This document shows positions 17,597-60,700 of a stretch of 64,000 bases of DNA, piece after piece. The notes under the pieces are model-generated. The model was not told the origin of the DNA, did no database searches, and saw only the letters and a program-made list of their open reading frames with translations. Numbering within the stretch: position 1 is the first letter of the stretch; every line of letters starts with the position of its first letter. The stretch is from contig NC_043001.1 of the NCBI RefSeq assembly GCF_006345805.1, positions 68,014,001-68,078,000 on the forward strand, in the 5' to 3' direction. Both the position numbers and the translations under genes were made by a program. The stretch is from Octopus sinensis (Eukaryota).

Positions 17597-20500
17597 CAGG
17601 TTACTTTCGAGTGCTACTGGTAACATTTAACCCAGTACAACCTGTTGCATGGTCGGGTCGTCGGCGACTAAACCGGCAACCCCACCAAGCTTGCTTGGTG
17701 AGGGGGTGTTTATTGGACACCCTGCGGGATGAAAAACAAAACCCGTCAAAGGGCGGAGGACCTCTTGAGAGTCAACGGCCATCCAATAAATGTTAGCACG
17801 GGTACATAGAAATTGCGGGGTGGTGTCCGGCGTGCTGAAAGACCACTGGGAGTGAGGCGCCCCTCAGCTTTTGTTAAAGCACGTCTTTAGGAGAAGGTCA
17901 CTCTGATATAAAACCAGATATGCAGGGAATGGCATTGAACATTTTGGGGATCTTTGGTTTGTGCTAGAGATCACGGCGCTCCCACATCCCTGAGCCTGCG
18001 ACTCATATTGGCACCAGACATCTTGCTCCGGCTTGTCTCTGGATAATGTCAATAGAGTGGAGAGGGTCTATGAGGTGTTGTGCAAGCCTTATTGGACCTA
18101 AAACTCTGCACAGGCATTGCCGACCTTTTGTTTTTTTTCTTCTATATATGTCTATCTTATTTTTAGTATATATATATATATTTTATTCGGAAGTCCTGCG
18201 GCAATGGGAAGGTGGTGAAGCATGCAGACCTGACGGGTTGGAAGCATGTAGTCAGTGACCTGCACGTAGGCGGCCCATGCTAGATATAAAGTCGTCTCCT
18301 TGTCGCCCAAGACAGCGGTAGGATTCGGTTGCTGCATGGATGTCTGAGCAGCTCCATTTGGAGAGGGCACTGCTCACCTGGAGACAGGGGAGGTTCTAGA
18401 AAAAGTGAACCAAAAATTGCCTGTCTTTCCATATCTGGTCAGTTTAGCGCGACTGACGGATGTCCACTCTGCGCTCGAAAAACAAAGAGTCTTTTATCTA
18501 TAAAATCTGGACGGAACTTAAACATTTCATGTTGGAATGTGCGTACTCTGTTGGACAACAAGAGTGATTGCAGGCCTGAAAGACGCACTGCACTTGTTGC
18601 TCGTGAGCTGAACCGTTATAAAATTGATATAGCTGCACTCTCAGAGACTCGTATAGAAGGTGATGGTCAGCTTGAGGAAGTAGGAGGCGGATACACCTTC
18701 TTTTGGAAAGGAAGGCAGAAGGAGGAGCGCAGAGAGGCTGGTGTTGGTTTTGCAGTCCGATCTGATATCCTGAAGAAGCTGGAAGAGCTCCCTGTTCCTA
18801 TAAATGAATGTATAATGACCCTACGGTTGCACTTGAAAGGTAAGCGGTTTGCTACTCTAATAAGTGCCTATGCACCTACTTTGACTAGCTGTGATGAAGA
18901 TAAAATAATCTTTTATACCCAGCTGAGAGCCATACGTAGAAAAATCCCCAATTCTGATAAAGCCATTCTACTGGGGGATTTTAATGCCAGAGTAGGAACA
19001 GACTGGCAAACATGGAACTCTCTAGGACGTTTTGGAGTAGGGAAAATGAATAGCAATGGTCTCATGCTACTGGAGCTTTGCGAAGAACATGGACTTTACA
19101 TTGCAAGTACTCATTTTGTGCACAAAGGTGATCACACAACAACATGGATGCATCCAAGGTCCAAAGTTTGGCACTTGCTAGATTACGTCATCATCCGCAA
19201 GCGCGACATTTATGACATTTGTAATGTCAAATCCTTGCATGGATCAGAATGCTGGACAAACCACAGTCTGGTGCGAGCAAAGTTCCGAATGGTGATTAGG
19301 GCGAAAGAGAGAAGAGAACCAGTCAGCATTCCTCGCTGTCTAAATGTCCACAAGGTATATGACGTTGTGGTTAGGAAAGAGCTTCAGACTCGCTTGTCCA
19401 GCATTGAAACTGCTGCAGGATGGGAAGATTTTCGAGACCAGGTTGTTCAATGTGCAGCCGAAACACTGGTTTGATGAGAATGATGCTGAAATTCAACGAC
19501 TATTAGTGGTGAAGCGCCATGCCCACAGTGTGTTGCTGCACAGAGAACTGTCTACTGTGCAACGAAGTCTAGCACTTGCCCACTATAACAGTGTAAAATC
19601 ACTACTGCAGCGATCTCTCAGGAAGATGCAGAACACTTGGTGGGAGGATCTTGCTCGTGATGTTCAGGCTGCTGCTGATTCAAATGACAGCAAGAAGCTT
19701 TACCATCTTATGAAGCGAGCTTATGGACCTAAGAGCTCCACATCAGCTCCTTTGCTTTTCAAGGAGTCTTCCACTATGTTTACTAAATCAACAGAAATCA
19801 CAGGTCGCTGGATCGAACACTTCTCTGAACTCCTAAACCATGAGTCAGTTGTGGATGAAACAGTGATTGACACTATGAAACAAAGACCTATCATTGACTC
19901 CTTAGACTCCTCGCCATCAATACATGAAGTAATTACATCAATAAGTAAATTGAATCTTGGTAGGGCACCTGGAAAGGATGGAATTTGTGCTGAGGTCTTG
20001 TGATTTGGTGGTAATTGCATCACACAGTCCCTTCATGAACTTATTAGTGCAGTCTGGAGGGATGGTGCAATCCCTAAGGACTGGAAGGATGCAATTATTC
20101 TTCCTCTGTATAAAGGAAAAGGAGCCAGAACAATGTGTGGTAACTACAGAGGTATTGCTCTACTATCAGCTGCTGGCAAAGTTCTGGCAAATATTCTTCT
20201 TACCCGTCTGAATGGGTGTCTCGTAAATGATGTCCTATCTGAATCTCAATGTGGCTTCCGATCTGGTAGAGGGACAATGGATATGATTTTCACAGCAAGA
20301 CAGGTGCAGGAGAAGTGCTATGAGCAGAATATGGATCTTGTCCAGGTATTCATTGATTTAACTAAGGCCTTTGATACTGTAAATAGGGCATTTCTATGGA
20401 AAATACTTGGCAAACTTGGATGTCCGGATCACTTTGTATCAATAATTACATCATTTCATGATGGGATGGAGGCTTGGGTCAATGTTGGTGGTGCCATGGC

Positions 20501-21730
20501 GGGACCCATCACTGTAGAGAATGGTGTTAAGCAGGGTGACATCCCCAACTCTCTTTTCTTTGTACTTTGCTGCTACTTTTACTCATGCTTTTGCTAAGGT
20601 TAGCTCTCTGGAAATATATGTCAGATATCGATCTTCTGGCCGCCTCTTTAATCTTCGCCGATTTGCTGCCAATTCAAAGGTTTCCCAGTCTATTATTCGT
20701 GACCTACTTTATGCAGATGACTGTGACTTAGTCACTCATACAGTGGATGACATGCAAATACTCATGAATTGCATTTCTGCTTCTTGCAGGGCATTTGGAC
20801 TCAGCATTAGCCTGGACAAGACTGTTGTAATGTTCCAGCCTGCACCAGGAAATCCATATATAGAACCAGCTATCTTGGTTGAAGGAACGATTCTGAAGGT
20901 AGTAGACAAGTTTGTCTACCTGGGCAGCACACTCAGCCGTTCTTGCTCCCTGGATGAGGAAATATCTTTCAGGTTGCAGAGAGCAACTAATTCCTTTCGG
21001 TCTCTTCAGTCTCGTGTCTGGTCCCAACATGGCATCGCAAGGAGAACAAAAGTTGCTGTGTACCGTGCTTGTGTACTGACATCGCTTCTCTACTCATGTG
21101 AGACATGGACTCTGTACAAACGTCAGGTCAGGGTCCTTGAACGTTTTCATCAGAGATGTCTCAGACACATTCTCAATGTTGGCTGGACCTCAAAAATTCC
21201 AGACACACAGATCCTGAGGACAGCTGATATCTTGAGTATTGAGGCGATGGTACACAAGCACCAGTTGCGTTGGACTGGACACCTTATTAGAATGGAGGAT
21301 AGAAGGATTCCTAAACAGATGCTCTATGGAGAACTTGTGAATGGAAGGAGACTCCGGCAGAAACCAAGGCTGCGATTTAAGGACTGTGTCAAGTCCTCGT
21401 TAAAGGCCTTTGATATGCAGGACACTGACTGGGAGAACAATGTCTGTCATCGCCACAGATGGAGGAAGCAGGTTAAGGAGGGGATCGACACTTTTGAGAG
21501 AGCACGTATCCAGCATGAAGAACTTAAGCGAGCTGCGCGAAAGTGCACGGCTCGTATAGTGAATGAGGAAAGCTTGGTCTGCAATGTTTGCAGTCGTGTA
21601 TGCTTGTCAAGAGCATGGCTCATTAGGCACCAACGGAGCCGCAAATGCAAAATATAAGTTAGTCCTAGAGCGCACAATGTTCCTGAAGGTCGGCAATGGT
21701 CTTCCTCGGTCACGAGTGGACGGCCATCAT
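17597..21730 (+). mobile_element. Near full-length RTE-clade LINE inserted in (TATG)n
   Basis: Structured 5' UTR, APE+RT coding region and (CAT)n tail, with (TATG)n on both sides. Confidence 0.95.
18329..21657 (+). pseudogene. RTE ORF (APE endonuclease, RT, C-terminal CCHH-like finger) with frameshift/deletion at ~19470, stop at 20001-20003 and frameshift at ~20540
   Basis: WNVRTLLD, DIAALSETR, ISAYAPT, LLGDFNARVG, WHLLDYVI; NYRGIALLS, ESQCGFR, FIDLTKAFDTV, GVKQGD, LLYADDC, FVYLGS; CNVCSRVCLSRAWLIRH. Confidence 0.95.
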
Positions 21731-24585: not shown

Positions 24586-25205
24586 CAGGATACAAACAGG
24601 GGGCAGAGATTAGTCAGAATATTGATGACGTACCTTTCTGCTTGACTAGTCCCCTAACAAAATACAGACAGGGGGCAGATCTAATGCAGCTATAAGTCGT
24701 GATTGGGCAGAATCTTGATGACGTCCCGTTCTGCTTGACTAAGCCACCTAACGAAACGACTGGTCAAAACAGGATACAGACAAGAGGCAGTTATAATATA
24801 GCGAGAGGTCACGATTGGTCAGAATGCTGATGACGTCCCGTTCTGCTTGACTAAGCCACCTAACGAAAAGGGGCAGATCTAATACAGCTATAAGTCGTGA
24901 TTGGTCAGAATCATGATGACGTACCGTCCTGCTTGACTAAGCCACCTAACGAAACGACTGGTCAAAACAGGATACAGACAAGAGGCAGTTATAATACAGC
25001 GATAGGTCACGATTGGTCAGAATGTTGATGACGTACCGTTCTGCTTGACTAAAGCCACCTAACGAAACGATTGGTCAAAACGTTGATGACGTCACACTAC
25101 ACTGGACTGACCACCTAACAGGTATTATAAAACCCGAACAATTCACAAGACTCACTAGAATCACCCAGCGAACATCCACCATGGGTCATCACAATTGCTC
25201 AAGGT
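24586..25205 (+). promoter_or_regulatory. Tandem array of six GATTGG(CCAAT)+TGATGACGT(CRE/ATF) modules followed by TATAAAA and CCACCATGG
   Basis: TGATGACGT near 24624, 24716, 24828, 24915, 25026 and 25084, each preceded by GATT(G/A)G. TATAAAA at ~25126. Kozak-like ATG at 25181. Confidence 0.6.
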
Positions 25206-25666: not shown

Positions 25667-26142
25667 ATAAAGGGAAAGGTAGTCTTACAGCTGTTTCTGC
25701 GATATTAAGCATTTCCCTTCGTCAGAGACGAAATGAGAGAGTTATCTAGAGGGAAATAGTATAGTTCAATATAAGGAGTTACTTTGGAAAAATATGGATA
25801 TAGGGAGTATAAATGGAAATAAGAGAATAAAATAAAAGTAAAAATGTATGTTGGATGTTACAGCGCAGTTCCATTATACATGTAGGATGTTATGGTTGCA
25901 ATTCCATTATCCACAGAAAGTGCACTTTCCTTGAATAATGGAACTGCAACTGTAGCATCCTACACATATTTTTACTTTTATTTTTATTCTGTTATTTCCT
26001 TTTAAACTTCCTATATCAATCATTTTCGAAAATAACTCATGATATTGAACTATACTATTTCCCTTAACTCTTTCATATTGTCTCTGATGAAAGGATATCC
26101 CTAATATCCCAGAAACAGCTGAAAGATTAGATTTCTCTTTAT
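25667..26142. mobile_element. ~475-bp imperfect palindrome with a hammerhead motif at each end (PLE-like)
   Basis: Centre GAAAGTGCACTTTC (25916-25929). The arms are diverged reverse complements. Confidence 0.75.
25682..25729 (-). ncRNA. Minimal type I hammerhead motif
   Basis: Minus strand: gucu-CUGACGA-agggaaau...auaucgca-GAAA-cagcug-UA-agac. Stem I gucu/agac; stem II weakened. Confidence 0.65.
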
Positions 26143-31391: not shown

Positions 31392-31945
31392 TAGTTTTAT
31401 TTTTATAGCGTGCTTTCACTTCACTACCAAGCGCAGCTCTGTGTGCCTTGGATATGTGCTGTGATTTGTTGTGATGCTCTGATGGTTATTGTATGGAAAG
31501 TGTTCTGCGTAGGATGTGTGCAGTGCCTAGTAGTGTAATTTTCTGTATGTTATATGTGTTTGTAAGTCCTGGTGTTTTTGTTATGTATTTGTCTGAATAT
31601 TTTTTTATCATGCCTAATGTACCTACTATGATAGGAATTGTTTCTGTTTTTAGGTTCCACATTCTGGTTACCTCTATTTCCAGGTCTTTGTGTTTTGAGA
31701 GTTTCTCCATTTCTTTTAGAGACACGTTGTCATCTGCCGGTATTGATACATCAATTAGAAAGCATTTTTCTTCTTCATGATCTCTGACAACTATATCTGG
31801 TCTGTTGGCCTTAATTTCTCTATCTGTGTGTATCGACATATCCCAGAGTATGGTTGCTTTCTCGTTTTCTGTGACCTTTTCTGGTGTGTGCCTATACTAT
31901 CTTTTTTCTGTTGTTATTGCATAATGTTGGCATAGCTTCCAATAT
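31389..31945 (-). mobile_element. 5'-truncated R4/Dong-type LINE: RLE endonuclease domain plus 3' UTR, in (AAT)n
   Basis: ORF 31486-31839: NRPDIVV...CFLIDVSIP...EKLSKHKDL...PIIVGTLG...IQKITLLGTAHILRR (PD-D RLE). (ATT)n on both flanks. Confidence 0.9.
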
Positions 31946-34112: not shown

Positions 34113-34169
<57 letters not shown>

Positions 34170-34210
34170 CATAAATCTCTGAACGAGGTATTAACAGTAG
34201 CTGTTCGACA

Positions 34211-34676
34211 ACGTGAAGTATATTTGCCACTTAAATGTGGCTAACCACTAAGGGTGGATGCTACTGTAGCTTGTAGCTCCAGGACAACATCTTCTCCACC
34301 TGGCTATTGACACACTTTCTGTACCCTATCAGTATTTGCAAAGGGAAGCCATCCTTCCTATCGTCGACCTGACGTGATACGCACGTAAAAGATATATAGG
34401 GTATATGGAAAAAGGATATGTGTTTGCATTGGGACCCCATCGCATCGAAGACCGGTGATTGTCGTGCGCTGACGACGGGTAAATACCCAGAAACTCGGGT
34501 CCGTGCATATCACGTTAGGTCGACGATGGAAAGGATGGCTTTCATTTGCAAATACTGATAGGGCACTGAAAGTGTGTCAATAGCCAGGTGGAGAAGATGT
34601 TCTCCTGGGGCTACAAGCTACAGTAGCATCCACCCTTAGTGGTTAGCCACATTTAAGATGCAAATATACTTCACGT
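34211..34676. mobile_element. PLE-like inverted repeat (175-bp arms 34211-34385 / 34502-34676) with central hammerhead
   Basis: The arms are reverse complements with scattered substitutions. (TA)n/(TG)n lie nearby on both sides. Confidence 0.85.
34464..34506 (+). ncRNA. Minimal type I hammerhead ribozyme motif
   Basis: gugcg-CUGACGA-c-gggu-aaau-accc-a-GAAA-cucgg-GUC-cgugc. Predicted cleavage after 34501. Confidence 0.75.
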
Positions 34677-34686
34677 ATATATATAT

Positions 34687-34718
<32 letters not shown>

Positions 34719-35903
34719 CTGTGCGTGTGAGTATGTGGTTTACTGGTTAGGGTATTCGGCTCATGATCGCAAGGTCGTAAGTTTAATAAACGACAGTGCG
34801 TTGTGATCTTGAGCAAGATACTTTATTTCAGTTCCTCCTGTCAACTGAGCTGGCAAAATGAGTGGCATCTGTATTTCAAAGGTCTAACATTTATTTCACA
34901 TGGGTAGAAATATAGAGAAAGAAGTTGAAAATGCACTGGGATTTGTTTAGATATTTCTATTTTTAATTTTTTAAAAACTTAACCAGTTTCACAGATTGAA
35001 GAAAAAAATCTAAACGAATCCACATCCCCCCGAACTTCTGGCGAGAACTTTTGCAATTACATTTGGCTGTGTATTTGTATTCGTTGGCGCCAGCATTGTG
35101 TCTTGTGACATCTATTAATCGTTTCCTTTGTATGTCTGTTGATCGGTTGTAAATTTTCTGCCTCTTTATTAGTAATTTCTTTTTTGTGGTCTGGTGTTTA
35201 CTTTCCTTTTATTTGTTAATGGGAAGGTGGGGAGGACCTTATTTTATATTGATATTTTATATTCGTTGTTTTATTTTCGTTGGCTGCTTTAATTACTGAA
35301 TTTCTCTGTTGATATAATTAACATTGTGTGTATAACTTTTTGGTCAAGTTCGTTTCTGTATTGTTTACAAATATTGATGTCATGGTTGGATTTGTTTTTG
35401 GTGTGAACTTTGTGTTGACCAAAGGTGAAGAATTTAAAAAACTTGTTGGTTTATGCGGTTTTTCCTGAATTCAATTGCAAAACGTATTAAAGATGTGTTT
35501 ATGTATGGAGGAGTTAGGAGTATCTGCTATAAGTTGAATTATATGGTTGAGTGGCTTTTACTCACATGTTTCGAATTTTGTCTTGATGTTTTAAAGGGTG
35601 GAGATTTTTAGAAGCTTATTGAATTGCCTACTAAATTAGTTAAAGAACTGGGTTTATTTTACTTGAAAGAATGTATTTTGAATTATAAATATTTAGGCGT
35701 GTTCGTTTGTATGTATATGTGTTGTGGTCAAGACTTTCTTTTATCATGAGGATCAATACATTTTTCAGTATGTTTGTATGTATATGTGTGATTTTGTATA
35801 TGTGTGTCTATGTGAATATATGCTTCAGCAAGACATAATCTTTTCATGTGTGTGGTATGATGTAGGTTTGTTAGTTGTGGTTCGATTCTTGTGGGCATAT
35901 ATA

Positions 35904-43419: not shown

Positions 43420-43819
43420 AGATAGGGGTTGAAAATTCAACCCACCATGGGATAACATGGCTTATAGGTTAAATGAGGTATGACTGCCCTTGCTGCCGAA
43501 ACAGCTGTCAGATAGGATTTAATTACATATTATATTTGAAATTTTATACTTATATCTCTTTGTCTATTTACATTTACTGTATATTTTGTATAATGCCTTT
43601 ACTGATATGTAATGGTGTAATAAAGTATTGATTGGGTATCATCTGATAGTTGATGTTTTATTGATTTAAGTATGTTTCTCCATTTTCTAATTTTGTAGTT
43701 ATATATATATATATATTATATATATATATATATATATATTAAATTAGAGATAAAACCACTATTAGGCAAATCATACAATGAAAAACTTAAGCCATATATA
43801 TATATATATATATATATAT

Positions 43820-45060
43820 CATCGAGGGCCTTAAGTTTATCTTCGAAAACAACTTTTTAAATTTTAATAAGAAAACCTACAGACATGTATCAGGGACTGC
43901 AATAGATACTAAAGCTGGTCCAACTTATGCAAATCTGGTGATAACCTACCTAGAATTACAAATCTGTGAACAATCCAAATCAAAATACGGCCTGTCTTTC
44001 CACAAATACCTGATGGATGATTGGAAACGCTACTTGGATGCCTACCTCATCTTATGGTCTCACACATTCGACCAGCTGAATGAATTCAAAAATTTAATCA
44101 ACAGTGTCAACAACCATAAACAATTTACAATGGAATATAGTCAAGACCAACTTTCCTTTCAAGACATTCATATTATAAAAAGGCACCAACATTGAAACTG
44201 ATATCCACTACAAACCAACTGATTCCAAACAATACCTCTTGTACACTTCCAATCACCCAAAACATCTAAAGACAAACATCCCCTTCAATCTAGCAAGAAG
44301 AATCTGTACAATCGTCTCAAATTATAGAACACGAAATAAAAGACTCCAAGAACTAAAGGCAATTCTTCTCGAAGGACAGTACCCAGCTTCATTAGTTGAC
44401 AATGTAATAGAACGAGCCAAGATAATCGATATCCAAGACTTACGAAAACCGAAACATACACAAGGAACATTAAATAGTCTTCCATATATCTCAACACACA
44501 ATCCAAGAAATACAGAAGCTTACGCGATTACATACAAGAACATCCCACTACTGAGTCAAGACCCACGTCTAAAAAAGCACCCGAAATCCATAAAATAATA
44601 AAAAAGCAAGAGGCAACCCAAATCCCTAAAAAACTTACCAATGCAAAATTACCAAACACCCACCGTCAAAAAATATGTAGCCGGTCTAACTGCAGGACTT
44701 GCATCCGCCTCATTGAAGGAACAATATACAAATTCCAGTCAGGACACACTTTTGTTGTAAAAAATAACTTTACATGCGCATCAAAAACTTTATTTTATGC
44801 CATTAGGTATGAAGGGTACCGCAAAGACTACATAGGGCAGACTAGTCTTCCCTCAGAGATAGGATGACAGTCCACTGCCAACAATTGAGGGACCCCCACC
44901 ACAAGACAGATACCACTTAGATCTCTGTGCACAAAACAAGTCCTCCAAATTCCTAGTTTTCCCACTGTACCAATGCCCAGACAGCACCACTGAGCAAACA
45001 CGAATAAATAAGTAAAATATACTTATTCAAAAATACAGACCACAACTCAGCATACTCTAA
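43820..45060 (+). pseudogene. Penelope-like element (Neptune-like) RT plus GIY-YIG endonuclease, 5'-truncated and frameshifted
   Basis: FENNFLNFNKKTYRHVSGTAIDTKAGPTYANL, WKRYLDAYLILW, LSFQDI, YKPTDSKQYL.YTSNHPKHLKTNIPFNLARRICTIVS; FTCASKTLFYAI...YIGQTS. Confidence 0.9.
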
Positions 45061-53740: not shown

Positions 53741-55312
53741 AGTGGAGAAGAACTGGAACGAGATAACGAGTAGGGTGGTCACTCTCGCCCGGCAATGGGC
53801 CGAGAGGAATCTGTCCCTAAAAGGTCGGGCGGAGGTGGCGAACACGTACATCGCGTCCGTCATCTACTACCGCCTGACCGTCGTGCCTTGTCCCGACCCT
53901 ACCATCACCAAACTAGAACGCATTCTCTTTCGCTTCTTGTGGAAAGGATGCGTCCCGATGGTCAGGCAATCCATTTGCTGTCAACACCCGTTAAAAGGAG
54001 GACTGGGCATGCCGTGGTTGATGATGCGCAGACACGCGCTGAGACTGCGACATCTCAGGTTCTTCGTAGACGACGGTGAACAGGTGTGGTCGCCGTTTGT
54101 GAGGCACGCTTTCCCGTAGCTCGTCTCCATGACCGAACTGCAGTCGTGGATCAAAAAGAGGCCGAGGAAGGGCGAATGGCACCGCGAGTGTCGCGTTGCT
54201 CTCAAGCAACTCTGCCGTCCTGGGTCGACCTTGAGTGACTTCATCACAACCAAAGCATTCTATAGGGGATTAGTGGAGGGGAGGTACGACGACGAGCTCG
54301 GAGCGAACCTGGACGTCGACGAGGAGTACCTGACCCGCCTGTTCGGGACGACTTTCGGGCCAGGGCCCATGGACAACTTCCAGAGATCCCTGGCCTGGCA
54401 GTGCTACCGAGAAGCGCTACCCGTTCGGGATAAGCTCTACAGACACAGCTCGAGAAACACGGGGCGGACCTGCCCGAGATGCGGTCAGAGCGACGAAACC
54501 GTTCTGCACGCACTCGTGCAGTGTCCAACAATTTCCGACCTGTCACGTGTGGGACGAGTCGGTTCATCATCTGAGTCTATCGTCAATATTGTCACGCCTC
54601 CTTCCTTCAAACGGGAAGGAAGAGCTATTTTCATCATCCTTGTGGCTATGGCAAAAGAAGGTATCTGGTGGACGCGTCTGAAAGGATTGGAGACAAACAC
54701 TTTCCTCTCTGGTCAATCTCTCATCAACTTCTTCAAAAGGAAAGTGAGAGTAGAGAGGCAAGTTTTGTCTAGCGAATGTTTTAAAAAAAGATGGGTGAAT
54801 GTAGCAAGGATGGCACGTATGAATGACGAAGCCACCTTGAGCATAATCCTATGAACCCAGAAATTGAAAACAGAGGGTTACCCACTTGCAAAAAAATGTG
54901 GTAACATATAACAATATTGACCAAGGTTACCGTGGTCTTTCTCGTAGGCTTTTCTTCCCACGGATAAACCTTACTTGCTTTCCCCTTTACACCATATATC
55001 ATAACACTGTGATACACGATCCCTATTGATCGTTTTTTTTCCTCTTCCCTTTTTTTCCCCTTTTTTCTTCTTTTTTCATTTCTCTTTTCTTTTGTTCCTT
55101 TTCCTTTTCTTCTTTTTTATTTTCTATTTTTATTTTTTATTTTTTATTTTTTTTTGTTCTTTTCTTCCCTTTTACGATCCCTCTTGATCGAAAACCTACG
55201 CCACCCCCTTTTTTTGTTTCTTTTGTTTTTTGTTTTTTCATCCCCCAAAAGAAAAGCTCTACCTTGTAACTTGTCCCATCTGTGTGCAGCCCTGTGTGGC
55301 CAATAAAGAAAC
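53741..55312 (+). mobile_element. 5'-truncated Tx1-type LINE (ORF2 C-terminus with zf-RVT, U-rich 3' UTR) inserted in (TATC)n
   Basis: WAERNLSLKGRAEVAN, FRFLWKG, GGLGMP, REALPVRDKL, CPRCGQSDETVLHALVQC. One stop at 54117. AATAAA at 55302. (TATC)n on both flanks. Confidence 0.92.
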
Positions 55313-55334
55313 TTATCTATCTATCTATCTATCA

Positions 55335-58121
55335 ATCACCCATACACAACACCATCGGGTCACATCAAAATACTATATATCTCCAGAAATCAGCACCACA
55401 TACTAAAAGGCATTTTCCCCAGTGCGGTTGGTAAATGCTAAAAATACCTCACGAAGAAACTTTATTGGGATCTCCTCGAGGACAAAGCAAAGGAGAAGAA
55501 AGCAAAAACTTTAGAGCAGTAAGTAACCCTCTGTTCCTTTCGCTTGTATTCTAATTCACTAGGATTATGATCAAGATTGGTTATGTAAATGCGCGTGGCT
55601 TGGGGTCCCCTTGGAAACAAGGGTACCTTTTAAATGGCATAAAGTCACACAAGTTAGAAATCATAGCCATAAGTGAGACCAGACCCCACAATCCGCGGGC
55701 CGTAAAGACCATATTTGGCGGACAGTTCAACATTTATTTTCCCCCCTGTCTGCCAAGAATGGGCGGTAGTGGCACCGCGGTACTTTTTCGCAAGAGTCTG
55801 GATCTCAATGTAAAGACAATATTCGTAGACCCGGAGAGTAGACTGGTCGTCCTGGATGTCGACCGCAGCAATGGGTGCGCTTTTCGACTCGTATCAGTCT
55901 ACGCACCGCATTTAACAGGTCGGGTGGATTTCTTTCAACGCCTAGAAGTACTCTTGGGAACGTCTCGTCCTTTACTCTTAGTGGAATGCAACCTTGGAAA
56001 CGCATGTAGACTACGTGGGCAGAGATAGGAATAGACGGGGATGCAAATGCCTCAGAGACCTGCTCAGACGCTTTCAACTGTCTGACAGGTACCGCCTAGA
56101 CCACCCGAATGCGCCAACGTGGACATGGAACAACCGCATCGGGTCGTCAAGATCGTGTCTAGATAGGATACTGTGTAGGACAGTAGATAGAGATAGCGTA
56201 GGATGTCCACAATTCCACATAGCTACATGGATTACAAACTTGTGACATGTACGCTAGACTTAGGTAAGACACATAGGCAGGGTCCCGGATACTGGAAACT
56301 AAACGCTTCTTTCCCTCGAGACAGGTTTTCAGAGACCGGATTAGCACATTAGTAAAGAGGGCTTTGAAGGGAGCCATCATCGACAACAAATGGTGGTTTG
56401 CCCTCAAGAGAGCAGTAAAAGCAGAAGCGATTAGGTACAGCAAAGCACTAGCCATAGATAGAAACAGAGTAGAGAGTGAGCTAGTTAAGAAGCTAGAAGA
56501 GGCAATTAGAAGCGGCATCGCATCCCACGTTTTGGCGGCGAGGTTGGCCCTCGACCAACACTTCAACGCCAAACACGAAGGGTGTGTTGTCAGAGCTAGG
56601 ATGCGTGCTCTAAGGAACGGAGGTGTTGGAGCCGCGAGAGAGTGGCAGAGGCGCAACAGGGTAACAAAGCCACCATTCGGTCTCTGGTAGATGAACAGGG
56701 GCGCGAATTGCTCGAGCCAATTAAAATGTGAGGCCTTTCAACAGCATTTTGCCCGACTGTTCGGGACGAGTGGCGGGCAAAAACGTAGGGTGGACTTCGG
56801 TGCCTACCTACACAGTCTACCACGACTCTCGACAAGAGAGGCAGGGCACTGCGAAGGTGCCATCACGACGGCGGAAGTGCAGGACGCGATGCTCGAGGGA
56901 CAAATCGCCGGGTTTGGATGGTCTACCCTACGAGCTTTACAGTTGTATGGCAGAGTTGTTTGGAGACGTCTTGGCAGTGGTGTACTGCAACTGGCAGCAA
57001 AACGGGAGCATTCCTGGTTTTGTGAGCCGAGGAGCCGTAACACTGCTGAAGAAAGATCTAAACAAGGGGAATGTAATAGATAACTTTAGGCCCATCACTC
57101 TGCTTAATGCAGACTTGAAAAGTTTGGCCAAGGTGTTAGCCAAGAGGTTGGCGCTTGTCATCGAGAAACTGGTCGACAAGGCGCTAACGTGCGCCGTGCC
57201 GGGCCGGAGCATCCATGACAACCTCCACCTGATGCGCTACATCATAGACAGGGTAGTTAAGGAACCTGGCATAGGTGGGGCGCTGATCAATTTAGATCAA
57301 TCGAAAGCTTTCAATGGGGTAGACCATCGATACTTGGAGGCTTTCCTAAGAGCGTCTGGTTTCAGTCTCGTCTTTGTACACAGGCATCCGTTCGGTAATT
57401 CGCGTAAATGGACATCTATCAAGACCTTTCGACATCGCACGTTCGGTCTGTCAGAGATGCCCCCTCTCGTCGCTTCTCTACGTATTGACTCTCGAGCCAT
57501 TATTGCGGAAGCTGGCAACTCTGAGGGGCATCCCGCGAGAATTGGGATGCGAGACGAGCGTGTCTGCAAACGCGGACGACGTCACCGTCATAGTGTCTAG
57601 CCACGATCACGTCGAGCAGGTCGGCGAGACACTGAAAGACTATGAAGCAGTGACAGGAGCGAAAATCAACCGGGAAGAATCAGTGGGCTTGCGACTCAGC
57701 ACCTGGAGAAGCAAGCCCATGCCGTCCACCAGCGCCGCCGTCGTGAGACGCTGGACCGACGGTCTGATCGAGTTGCTTGGGGTCTGGTTTGGTCCAGACC
57801 TCCAAATGGAGAAGAACTGGAACGAGATAACGAGTAGGGTGGTCACTCTCGCCCGGCAATGGACCGAGAGGAAACTGTCCCTAAAAGGTCGGGCGGAGGT
57901 GGCGAACTCGTACATTACGTCCGTAATCTACTACCGTCGTGCCTTGCCCCGACCCTACCATCACCAAAACTAGAACGCATTCTCTTTCGCTTCTTGTGGA
58001 AAGGATACGTTCCGATGGTCAGGCGATCCATTTGCTGTCAACACCCGTTAAACACTGGGCATGCCGTGGTTGATGATACGCAGACACGCGCTGAGACTGC
58101 GACATCTCAGGCTCTACGTAG
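55335..58121 (+). mobile_element. Second Tx1-type LINE copy: ORF2 APE and RT (frameshifted), 3'-truncated
   Basis: IKIGYVNARGL, AISETR, LVSVYAP, TWTWNN...CLDRIL, KSPGLDGLPYELY, NFRPITLLNADLK, LDQSKAFN, CPLSSLLYVL, ANADDVTV. 57806-58121 repeats 53742-54070. Confidence 0.92.
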
Positions 58122-58984: not shown

Positions 58985-60700
58985 ACTCATTTTCTCTCTT
59001 GAGTCTTGCATGCGTTATCCTGCCCTCTTCACACGCTTTTACTCCACTGCGCACTTTTGTTCGCCAGCCAGTTCGATCCGAAGAAAAGGTTTCTATGTCC
59101 TCTGGTTTCAATTCCAACTGACTTAATAGTAGTCCTTATGCCATCCTTAAACATCTTTTTAGGTTTACACCAATAGCGTTTCCCCTCTGCAAGTTCACCA
59201 TCAAACAGCTGTTTGGTACGTTCATCCGCCATTCGAACAATATGGTCACACCATCTCATTTATCTTTCAGAATCATTGATTTAATTGAAGTTATGCCTGC
59301 AGACGTAAGAACATCTGTGTTTGGAGTAAAAGAACTCCATTTAATATTTAAAATGCGATGAAGGAAGTTTTGGTGGGATTGTTCTAACAATTTGAAATGT
59401 CTTTCATAACATGTCCAAGTTTCAGAAAAATGCAACAGATTTGTAAAGATTCGATTTTGTGTTTGTTATTTATATGTCGTTAGCGCCAAACGCATGACTT
59501 CAAACCACAAATGCTTGTGCTGCCCTTTGAATTCGCAAATGTATTTCTGTGAGCAGATTTTCGTCATTTTGTACAGAGCTTCCAGGGTAGATGAAAGAAT
59601 CAACAACCTCAAGTAACTTACTATGAACAAAAATTTTAGGGTTGTTGCAACAGCATCACGTGCAGGTTGATACAATACAACTGTTTTTTTTCAATTTGAT
59701 GGTCAAGCCCAAATCATCACAAACTGAGTCAAATGCAGACACAAGAGATTGCAGACTTGTTTCGGAATGACTGACAAGATCGCAATCGTCAGCGAATAAG
59801 GGTTCCCTAATGAGTGAGGTAAAAACCTTCGTTTTGAATTTCAGTCTGCTCAGATTAAAAATATTCCCTGTTGTTCGATATTTTATGTAAATACACTTCT
59901 CAGAGGTTTGAAAAGCATGTGACAAAATAACAACAAAGTATATTGCAAATAGGGTGGATGTATCAAGGTCTCCTTGCTTTATTCCATTTTCCACGGCAAA
60001 TGATTCAGAGAGCCTACCACCAAAGTTAACTCTAGCTTTCATATCTTGATGCAAATCTCTGATCATGTTTACAAATTTTTCTGGGCAACCTATTTTCCTT
60101 AGAATTAGCGACAGAGCATTTGATTAACAGTATCGAATGCTTTGCTCAAATCAACAAGGCATTCGATTAAAATTATCGAATGCTTAGCTCAAATCAACAA
60201 AGCAATGGTATAGGGCAAGATTTTGTTCAATGCACTTTTCCTGAAATTGTCTGATAGTAAAAATACAATCAACTGTGCTCCTGGAAAAGTGAAAAGCACA
60301 TTGAGACTCAGACACCATATTTGGAACTATGAAGGGATTCAAATGTTCTAACTGAATGCGGGCAAGTACCTTTCCAACCAAAGACAAAAGCCAAAATTAC
60401 CACACAGATCCCTTGGCCCCAATTTATACAAGGAGACTAAAATGGCATCAATCCAGTCTTGAGGCACTTTCTCAGTTCTCCAACAATGACAAATTAATAT
60501 GTTCAAGAGTTCAAACATTTTGTCACCCCCATATTTCAAGACCTCTGCACAGATTCCATAAGATCCTGGAGATTTATTGTTATTCAGCTTATTCAGAGCT
60601 AGATAAATGCGCACCAAAACGAAGACTTTTGAAATATAACCCCAAATGTAATTGGCAGAACCACATGCATGTTCAATCTCATGCGGACGTCTCGTGTATA
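58985..60700 (-). mobile_element. Degraded RTE-clade LINE RT region
   Basis: KSPGSYGICAEVLKYGG, ESQCAFHFSRSTVDCIFTIRQFQEKCIEQN, ENGIKQGD, LFADDCDL, RWCDHIVRMADER. Confidence 0.9.

Follow-up and report, generated by a model that had tools for sequence, protein, structure and literature searches.

Head-to-head cDNA copies of a hammerhead-bearing repeat in Octopus sinensis mostly pair a long with a short 3' end, and 5' ends across the family show no pile-up at the predicted cleavage site

Introduction

Non-LTR retrozymes have been defined as a class of repeats and linked to the pseudo-LTRs of Penelope-type elements (PLEs) (PMC7229834; bioRxiv 10.64898/2026.07.22.740005). In animals, as set out in the portions of this literature drawn on here, they are ORF-less tandem units of 150-450 bp that carry a type I hammerhead with a short helix III and a palindromic loop, have a GC content near 45%, and are present in thousands of copies ranging from monomers to multimers, with cleavage and circular RNA being part of the known class (Cervera and de la Pena 2020, PMC7229834). 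The PLEs themselves carry a hammerhead in their repeats, are heavily truncated at the 5' end, are inserted at microsatellite targets as partial (pseudo-LTR) tandems and characteristically have an adjoining inverted 5'-truncated copy, and a tail of 30-40 bp is often found at one end only (passages of PMC8557442 and PMC11167929). For another PLE, which has been reconstituted in vitro, the corresponding sections of PMC11167929 report that insertion proceeds without hammerhead cleavage and is unaffected by hammerhead mutations, that the protein is a predicted dimer which cleaves and extends both target strands, and that its tail is bounded by two internal start sites for the reverse transcriptase (RT). 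The role of the hammerhead in Penelope-type elements is treated as an open question in the parts of both papers used here (PMC8557442; PMC11167929). A precedent for a ribozyme-made 5' end of a retroelement RNA is provided by R2, where, according to the relevant part of PMC6765202, an HDV-like ribozyme cuts the element RNA from its rRNA co-transcript; R2 differs from the case described below in both ribozyme and element class.

The window analysed here is a 64,000-nt stretch of the O. sinensis genome (contig NC_043001.1, positions 68,014,001 to 68,078,000), a microsatellite-rich genome of 2.72 Gb. It contains an inverted repeat beside a hammerhead motif, and the original prediction held that one arm of this repeat was cDNA copied to the very 5' end of a ribozyme-cleaved RNA. 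The repeat belongs to a family that shares with animal non-LTR retrozymes the ORF-less tandem unit of matching size, the type I hammerhead with its short helix III and palindromic loop, a GC content near 45% and the copy number, and that shares with PLE insertions the partial tandems with an inverted adjoining copy, the two 3' ends internal to the RNA unit, the microsatellite target, the hammerhead in the repeat and the heavy 5' truncation. From its sequence, the window element is best classed as a retrozyme of the non-LTR type with PLE-type insertion anatomy.

Results

The insertion (34168-34676) is embedded in a TA/TG microsatellite and together with these flanks occupies window positions 34,121-34,737. 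In the numbering used here, unit position +1 is the base after the predicted hammerhead cut. To the left lies a (TA)n run (34121-34167) that is the likely insertion target, followed by a left copy on the minus strand (34168-34385) that covers +1 to +218 and is 95% identical to the consensus of subfamily A; its 5' end lies exactly at the predicted cut and its 3' end at the long end of the family, the latter boundary being ambiguous against the TA run over 34168-34173. A 20-nt filler of non-family sequence (34386-34405), which has no 8-mer in common with either strand of the unit, forms the head-to-head junction. The right copy (34406-34676, plus strand) then runs from unit position 260 to 357 and on from +1 to +173/175, starting some 98 nt 5' of the cut, reading through the hammerhead and finishing at the short 3' end; a (TA)n/(TG)n microsatellite (34677-34737) flanks the insertion on the right. 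The window insertion is thus of a long+short type, with 3' ends at +218 and +173.

The inverted repeat greatly exceeds what chance would produce: when reverse-complemented, 34211-34385 matches 34502-34676 at 163 of 175 positions (93.1%) in a gap-free alignment. As had been claimed, this homology begins at 34502, the base directly after the GTC at 34499-34501, and beyond it the left arm carries TAAAA where the family carries GACCC. The coordinates given for the left arm describe the complementary stretch correctly but not the copy, which extends about 44 nt further, to approximately 34168; position 34211 simply reflects the end of the shorter right copy. An assembly artefact is an unlikely source of the palindrome, given the 12 mismatches between the arms over 175 bases. 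A junction-like joint (L010 1512/1606, on opposite strands) was also found in contigs of three of four runs, one of which may be the source sample, and presumably corresponds to the window locus.

The motif itself (34455-34513, plus strand, core at 34469-34501) has the parts of a type I hammerhead, all on the plus strand: a 6-bp helix I (34463-68 with 34502-07), the core CUGACGA (34469-75), a helix II (34477-80 with 34485-88) with a C.A mismatch at its base, the GAAA (34490-93), and a helix III closed by C34494-G34499 with the loop UCGG, which places the predicted cut at 34501/34502. It had been called a minimal hammerhead, a form described in the part of PMC4209133 used here as having no helix III or loop 3, a helix II of 7-8 bp and a helix I of 4-5 bp. 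That identity was rejected: a helix I of 6 bp, a helix II of 4-5 bp and a helix III of 1-2 bp with a tetraloop fit the canonical metazoan type I hammerhead of the same account. An Rfam search of the hammerhead, at gathering and E-value thresholds, returned no hammerhead match. Across 30 aligned family motifs, 92% of helix cells are paired as against 15-63% in slid controls and 4 of 17 helix pairs show two-sided changes, figures that lend support and not a probability, the rows being related by descent. The core is invariant in the family except for U4C in subfamily B1. For the window copy, which has a non-palindromic loop III in addition to the C.A mismatch, fold prediction gives a non-hammerhead shape at -19.0 kcal/mol and the hammerhead shape at -8.5, and as a monomer its ribozyme is predicted by such modelling to be a weak cutter.

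Several variations on the motif were observed. The C.A mismatch under helix II recurs in subfamilies A and B1, and B1 often carries CCGAUGA (16 of 71 distinct motifs). In B2, the youngest tandem subfamily, the core is fully canonical and helix II has G-C at its base. Loop III is palindromic in its commonest forms (UCGA and CCGG, with UGCA seen once). In four read-through loci (L262, L276, L217 and L376), extra or garbled bases are found at or beside the predicted cut/ligation site, and one C is missing there in many young B2 units, which may be a long-read homopolymer error.

The family was defined from 30 loci, used after a DNA search that gave 2,704 candidates and the scoring of the best 40, and consists of a circularly permuted unit of 357 nt in subfamily A and 352 nt in B2; B1 and C are further subfamilies. 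A tandem array of B2 (L291) holds 7.1 copies with a period of 353 nt, and the longest ATG ORF in the array is 90 aa. The circular fold of the unit is predicted to be strongly self-paired (z of -7.4 and -5.8). In contrast to the known retrozymes of PMC7229834, as far as they are described in the part used here, most of the copies observed are dispersed insertions of one to two units with PLE-type ends, the GC content of subfamily A is 46% (B2, 42%) against a retrozyme criterion of below 45%, and cleavage and circular RNA are predictions. At least 2,326 genomic sites read straight across the cut, as counted by exact matches to a degenerate pattern that spans it, and the control gave 0. The family is also present in contigs from four runs presumed to be RNA, where one contig among the matches listed bridges the cut, contigs being unable to show ends, strand or circles. 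It was observed separately that 5' ends recur near unit position 260 (window position 34406 and loci L005, L022 and L070), where a 7-bp hairpin has its 3' foot and RT may stop.

Whether 5' ends collect at the cut was examined in copies that have the downstream core and lack upstream family bases, with ends called against subfamily references and compared with a null of simulated uniform truncation, in which real copies and real flanks were passed through the identical filter and caller. The first sample (101 matches, 99 recovered from 100 listed) gave 85 ends within -22 to +23, with 0 at +1 where approximately 3 were expected. Young B2 copies had escaped this sample by one core base, and a targeted search of subfamily B (25 matches) established that genuine ends at or near +1 exist. 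A GATGACTTC-core sample, mostly of young B2, was therefore added from 100 listed of 142 matches, by fetching 30 loci and 38 regions, the latter being rows judged non-intact by eye, with some 30 read-through rows left out. Combined, the samples place 0 of 139 ends within -22 to +23 at +1 (4.2 expected), 8 at -1 to +2 (9.9 expected) and 16 at -2 to +3 (18.1 expected). In the GATGACTTC-core sample alone, +1 to +3 held 9 ends against 4.0 expected. Among these 9 are a biased row, which came from the unlisted matches by way of the targeted search, a garble at an internal position and a probable miscall; this excess in young B2 shrank once TA/TG microhomology and the three doubtful rows were taken into account, was not seen with the near-site filter described below, and was set aside. 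A further candidate excess, at -12 to -22, vanished against the simulated null (36 against 37.0).

The far-upstream filter had left out three known +1 copies, and a near-site filter was also used. All of its 71 + 12 matches were listed and 59 + 11 distinct ones recovered, the remaining rows being duplicates or read-through judged by eye, and 26 same-strand rows were set aside. With this filter, 4 of 44 true ends in -2 to +8 lie at +1 against 4.3 expected: 4 of 23 in head-to-head arms (2.4 expected, p=0.22) and 0 of 21 in solo copies (1.9 expected). The copies sampled by the two filters overlap, and the two tests do not count as independent. By eye, a pattern search for true ends (25 matches, a small sample) yielded about 20, of which the window alone lay at +1. 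In a wider search with 633 matches, of which 100 were listed and inspected by eye alone, other subfamilies dominated. Among the best 24 of 1,244 rows of DNA contigs compared with L010, no pile of loose ends was seen at the cut, a weak observation given that L010 is mismatched beside the site.

There is accordingly no pile-up of 5' ends at the cut site across the family. The proposal that cleavage had set the 5' end of the retrotransposed RNA was not supported: boundaries are spread evenly around the GUC (0 of 139 and 4 of 44 at +1), the outcome that the original prediction had itself named as telling against it, and the many sites that cross the cut include the right copy of this very insertion. 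An exact +1 end is found at five loci, the window, L031, L180, L198 and L204, all of them head-to-head, and L198 has both arms ending there; a genome-wide background roughly estimated at about 9 ends per base position accounts for these five. The exact stop of the left arm at +1 is within chance expectation. A modest +1 excess may exist in head-to-head arms, with a 95% interval of about 0.5- to 3.7-fold.

The 3' ends pile up inside the unit at approximately +173 and +218, some 45 nt apart, and loose contig ends at +173 were present in three of the four runs listed. Amongst 291 loci (L001-L291), deliberately enriched for junctions and selected on their 5'-end patterns and not their 3' ends, 104 head-to-head junctions were examined. 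Setting aside the 25 with one unclassed end, 75 of 79 pair a long with a short 3' end, and 2 are long+long and 2 short+short; 39.5 long+short pairs would be expected (p=3e-18). In solo copies, the two ends occur with similar frequency (61 long, 73 short, 13 other). By type, the 104 junctions comprise 56 overlaps, 44 fillers and 4 blunt joins, with fillers of at least 10 nt at 19. Paired arms have rare variants in common, at 0.71 per pair in 76 pairs against 0.07 for unpaired arms; the two window arms share two non-consensus bases, and the C87G common to both is found in 2 of 289 other loci. The near-constant pairing and the shared variants together indicate two cDNAs of one integration event and one source, joined head-to-head, a conclusion that is well supported, whilst gene conversion between the arms could be an alternative source of the shared variants. 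The original prediction of a head-to-head join of two cDNAs was therefore sound in substance, except that at this locus they are not butt-joined but separated by the 20-nt filler. At some junctions both arms end near the same unit position (11/11, 312/312, 1/1, 1/4 and 298/298); such near-symmetric loci (L126, L164, L198, L204, L210 and L089) may reflect fold-back priming.

PLE-type RT elements are abundant in the genome (12,723 candidates, with an RVT_1 match). The family described here differs from PLEs in having no ORF, and a search for an autonomous partner, started from a broken Penelope-type RT remnant in the window (43791-44598), found no matching repeat beside the ORF in the 44 PLE loci of two groups (30 + 14) that were examined. 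Near-intact relatives of the remnant with frames of 670-780 aa exist elsewhere (L316). The window also holds a second inverted pair at about 25667-26142, 78% alike, which is a different Penelope-type repeat with hammerhead-like cores at 25725 (minus strand) and 26084 (plus strand); a two-copy tandem repeat of 198 nt with 94% matches (24672-25067); and, by eye from the translations, LINE-like endonuclease/RT frames with breaks at 18290-21657, 54120-57973, 31486-31896 and 59656-60123.

Discussion

The locus is probably a two-armed insertion of an ORF-less 357-nt hammerhead repeat, made by a borrowed PLE enzyme priming on both strands, in which the stop at the cut is a chance truncation. A Penelope-type RT/endonuclease, supplied in trans, would nick both strands of the (TA)n target; uncleaved RNA in multimeric or circular form would be the template, with one cDNA begun at +218 and the second at +173; each cDNA would stop at an arbitrary point; and the two would be joined by end-joining, through microhomology or filler synthesis. 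The stop of the left arm at the predicted cut would then be a likely accident of 5' truncation. Hammerhead cleavage, an activity predicted for the motif, may yield monomeric or circular RNA and yet not set the ends of insertions. The two internal 3' ends some 45 nt apart recall the two RT start sites that bound the PLE tail, for which a length of 30-40 bp is quoted. A similar outcome arises in LINE-1 twin priming, where both target strands prime cDNA and the inverted 5' part is joined by microhomology. There, the two parts are different stretches of one RNA, whereas both arms of the window insertion span +1 to +173; starting from two fixed positions, this needs a multimeric, circular or second RNA.

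The stop at the cut could instead record cleavage at this particular locus. A multimer with a hammerhead-made 5' end would have served as template, the +218 cDNA running off that end and the +173 cDNA of the next unit crossing an uncut site, in a process that would be real but rare. Such a history is unlikely, though several observations agree with it: the exact +1 stop followed by filler, the four further +1 loci, all head-to-head and one with both arms ending there, a geometry that suits a two-unit RNA, and a fold conserved with compensatory changes. However, +1 ends are at or below expectation in both samples, stutter-like fillers also occur at junctions remote from the site, and the window copy with its C.A mismatch and non-palindromic loop favours a non-hammerhead fold; for another PLE, the portion of PMC11167929 drawn on here likewise reports that RNA-seq yielded no reads terminating at the cut. 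A fuller version, in which a Penelope RT dimer works on one hammerhead-cut multimer with its subunits always at +173 and +218, and sporadic run-off leaves the window, L031, L180, L198 and L204 as fossils of cleavage in vivo, is similarly doubtful. It is far less probable again that the palindrome was made after insertion, at the DNA level by fold-back or inverted duplication, or by a second independent copy alongside. Arms that are 93% alike with two non-consensus bases in common would suit a DNA-level origin, yet the left arm has about 44 nt (+174 to +218) that are absent from the right copy and so is not its copy, and an independent second copy would give random 3' pairing instead of 75 long+short pairs in 79. 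Both of these histories are largely refuted by the long+short rule.

The family supplies a genome-scale answer for one case to the question of what the hammerhead does: inserted cDNAs cross the cut thousands of times and show no preference for ending there. In this it departs from R2, as described in the part of PMC6765202 used here, since 5' ends are not gathered at the cut, and the even spread of 5' ends agrees with in vitro work in which uncleaved RNA serves as the substrate. The long+short pairing rule, which was not found in the published literature searched (main texts), is a more interesting result than the stop at the cut site. It places a sharp constraint on the enzyme's mode of integration, one that is testable in the existing in vitro system.
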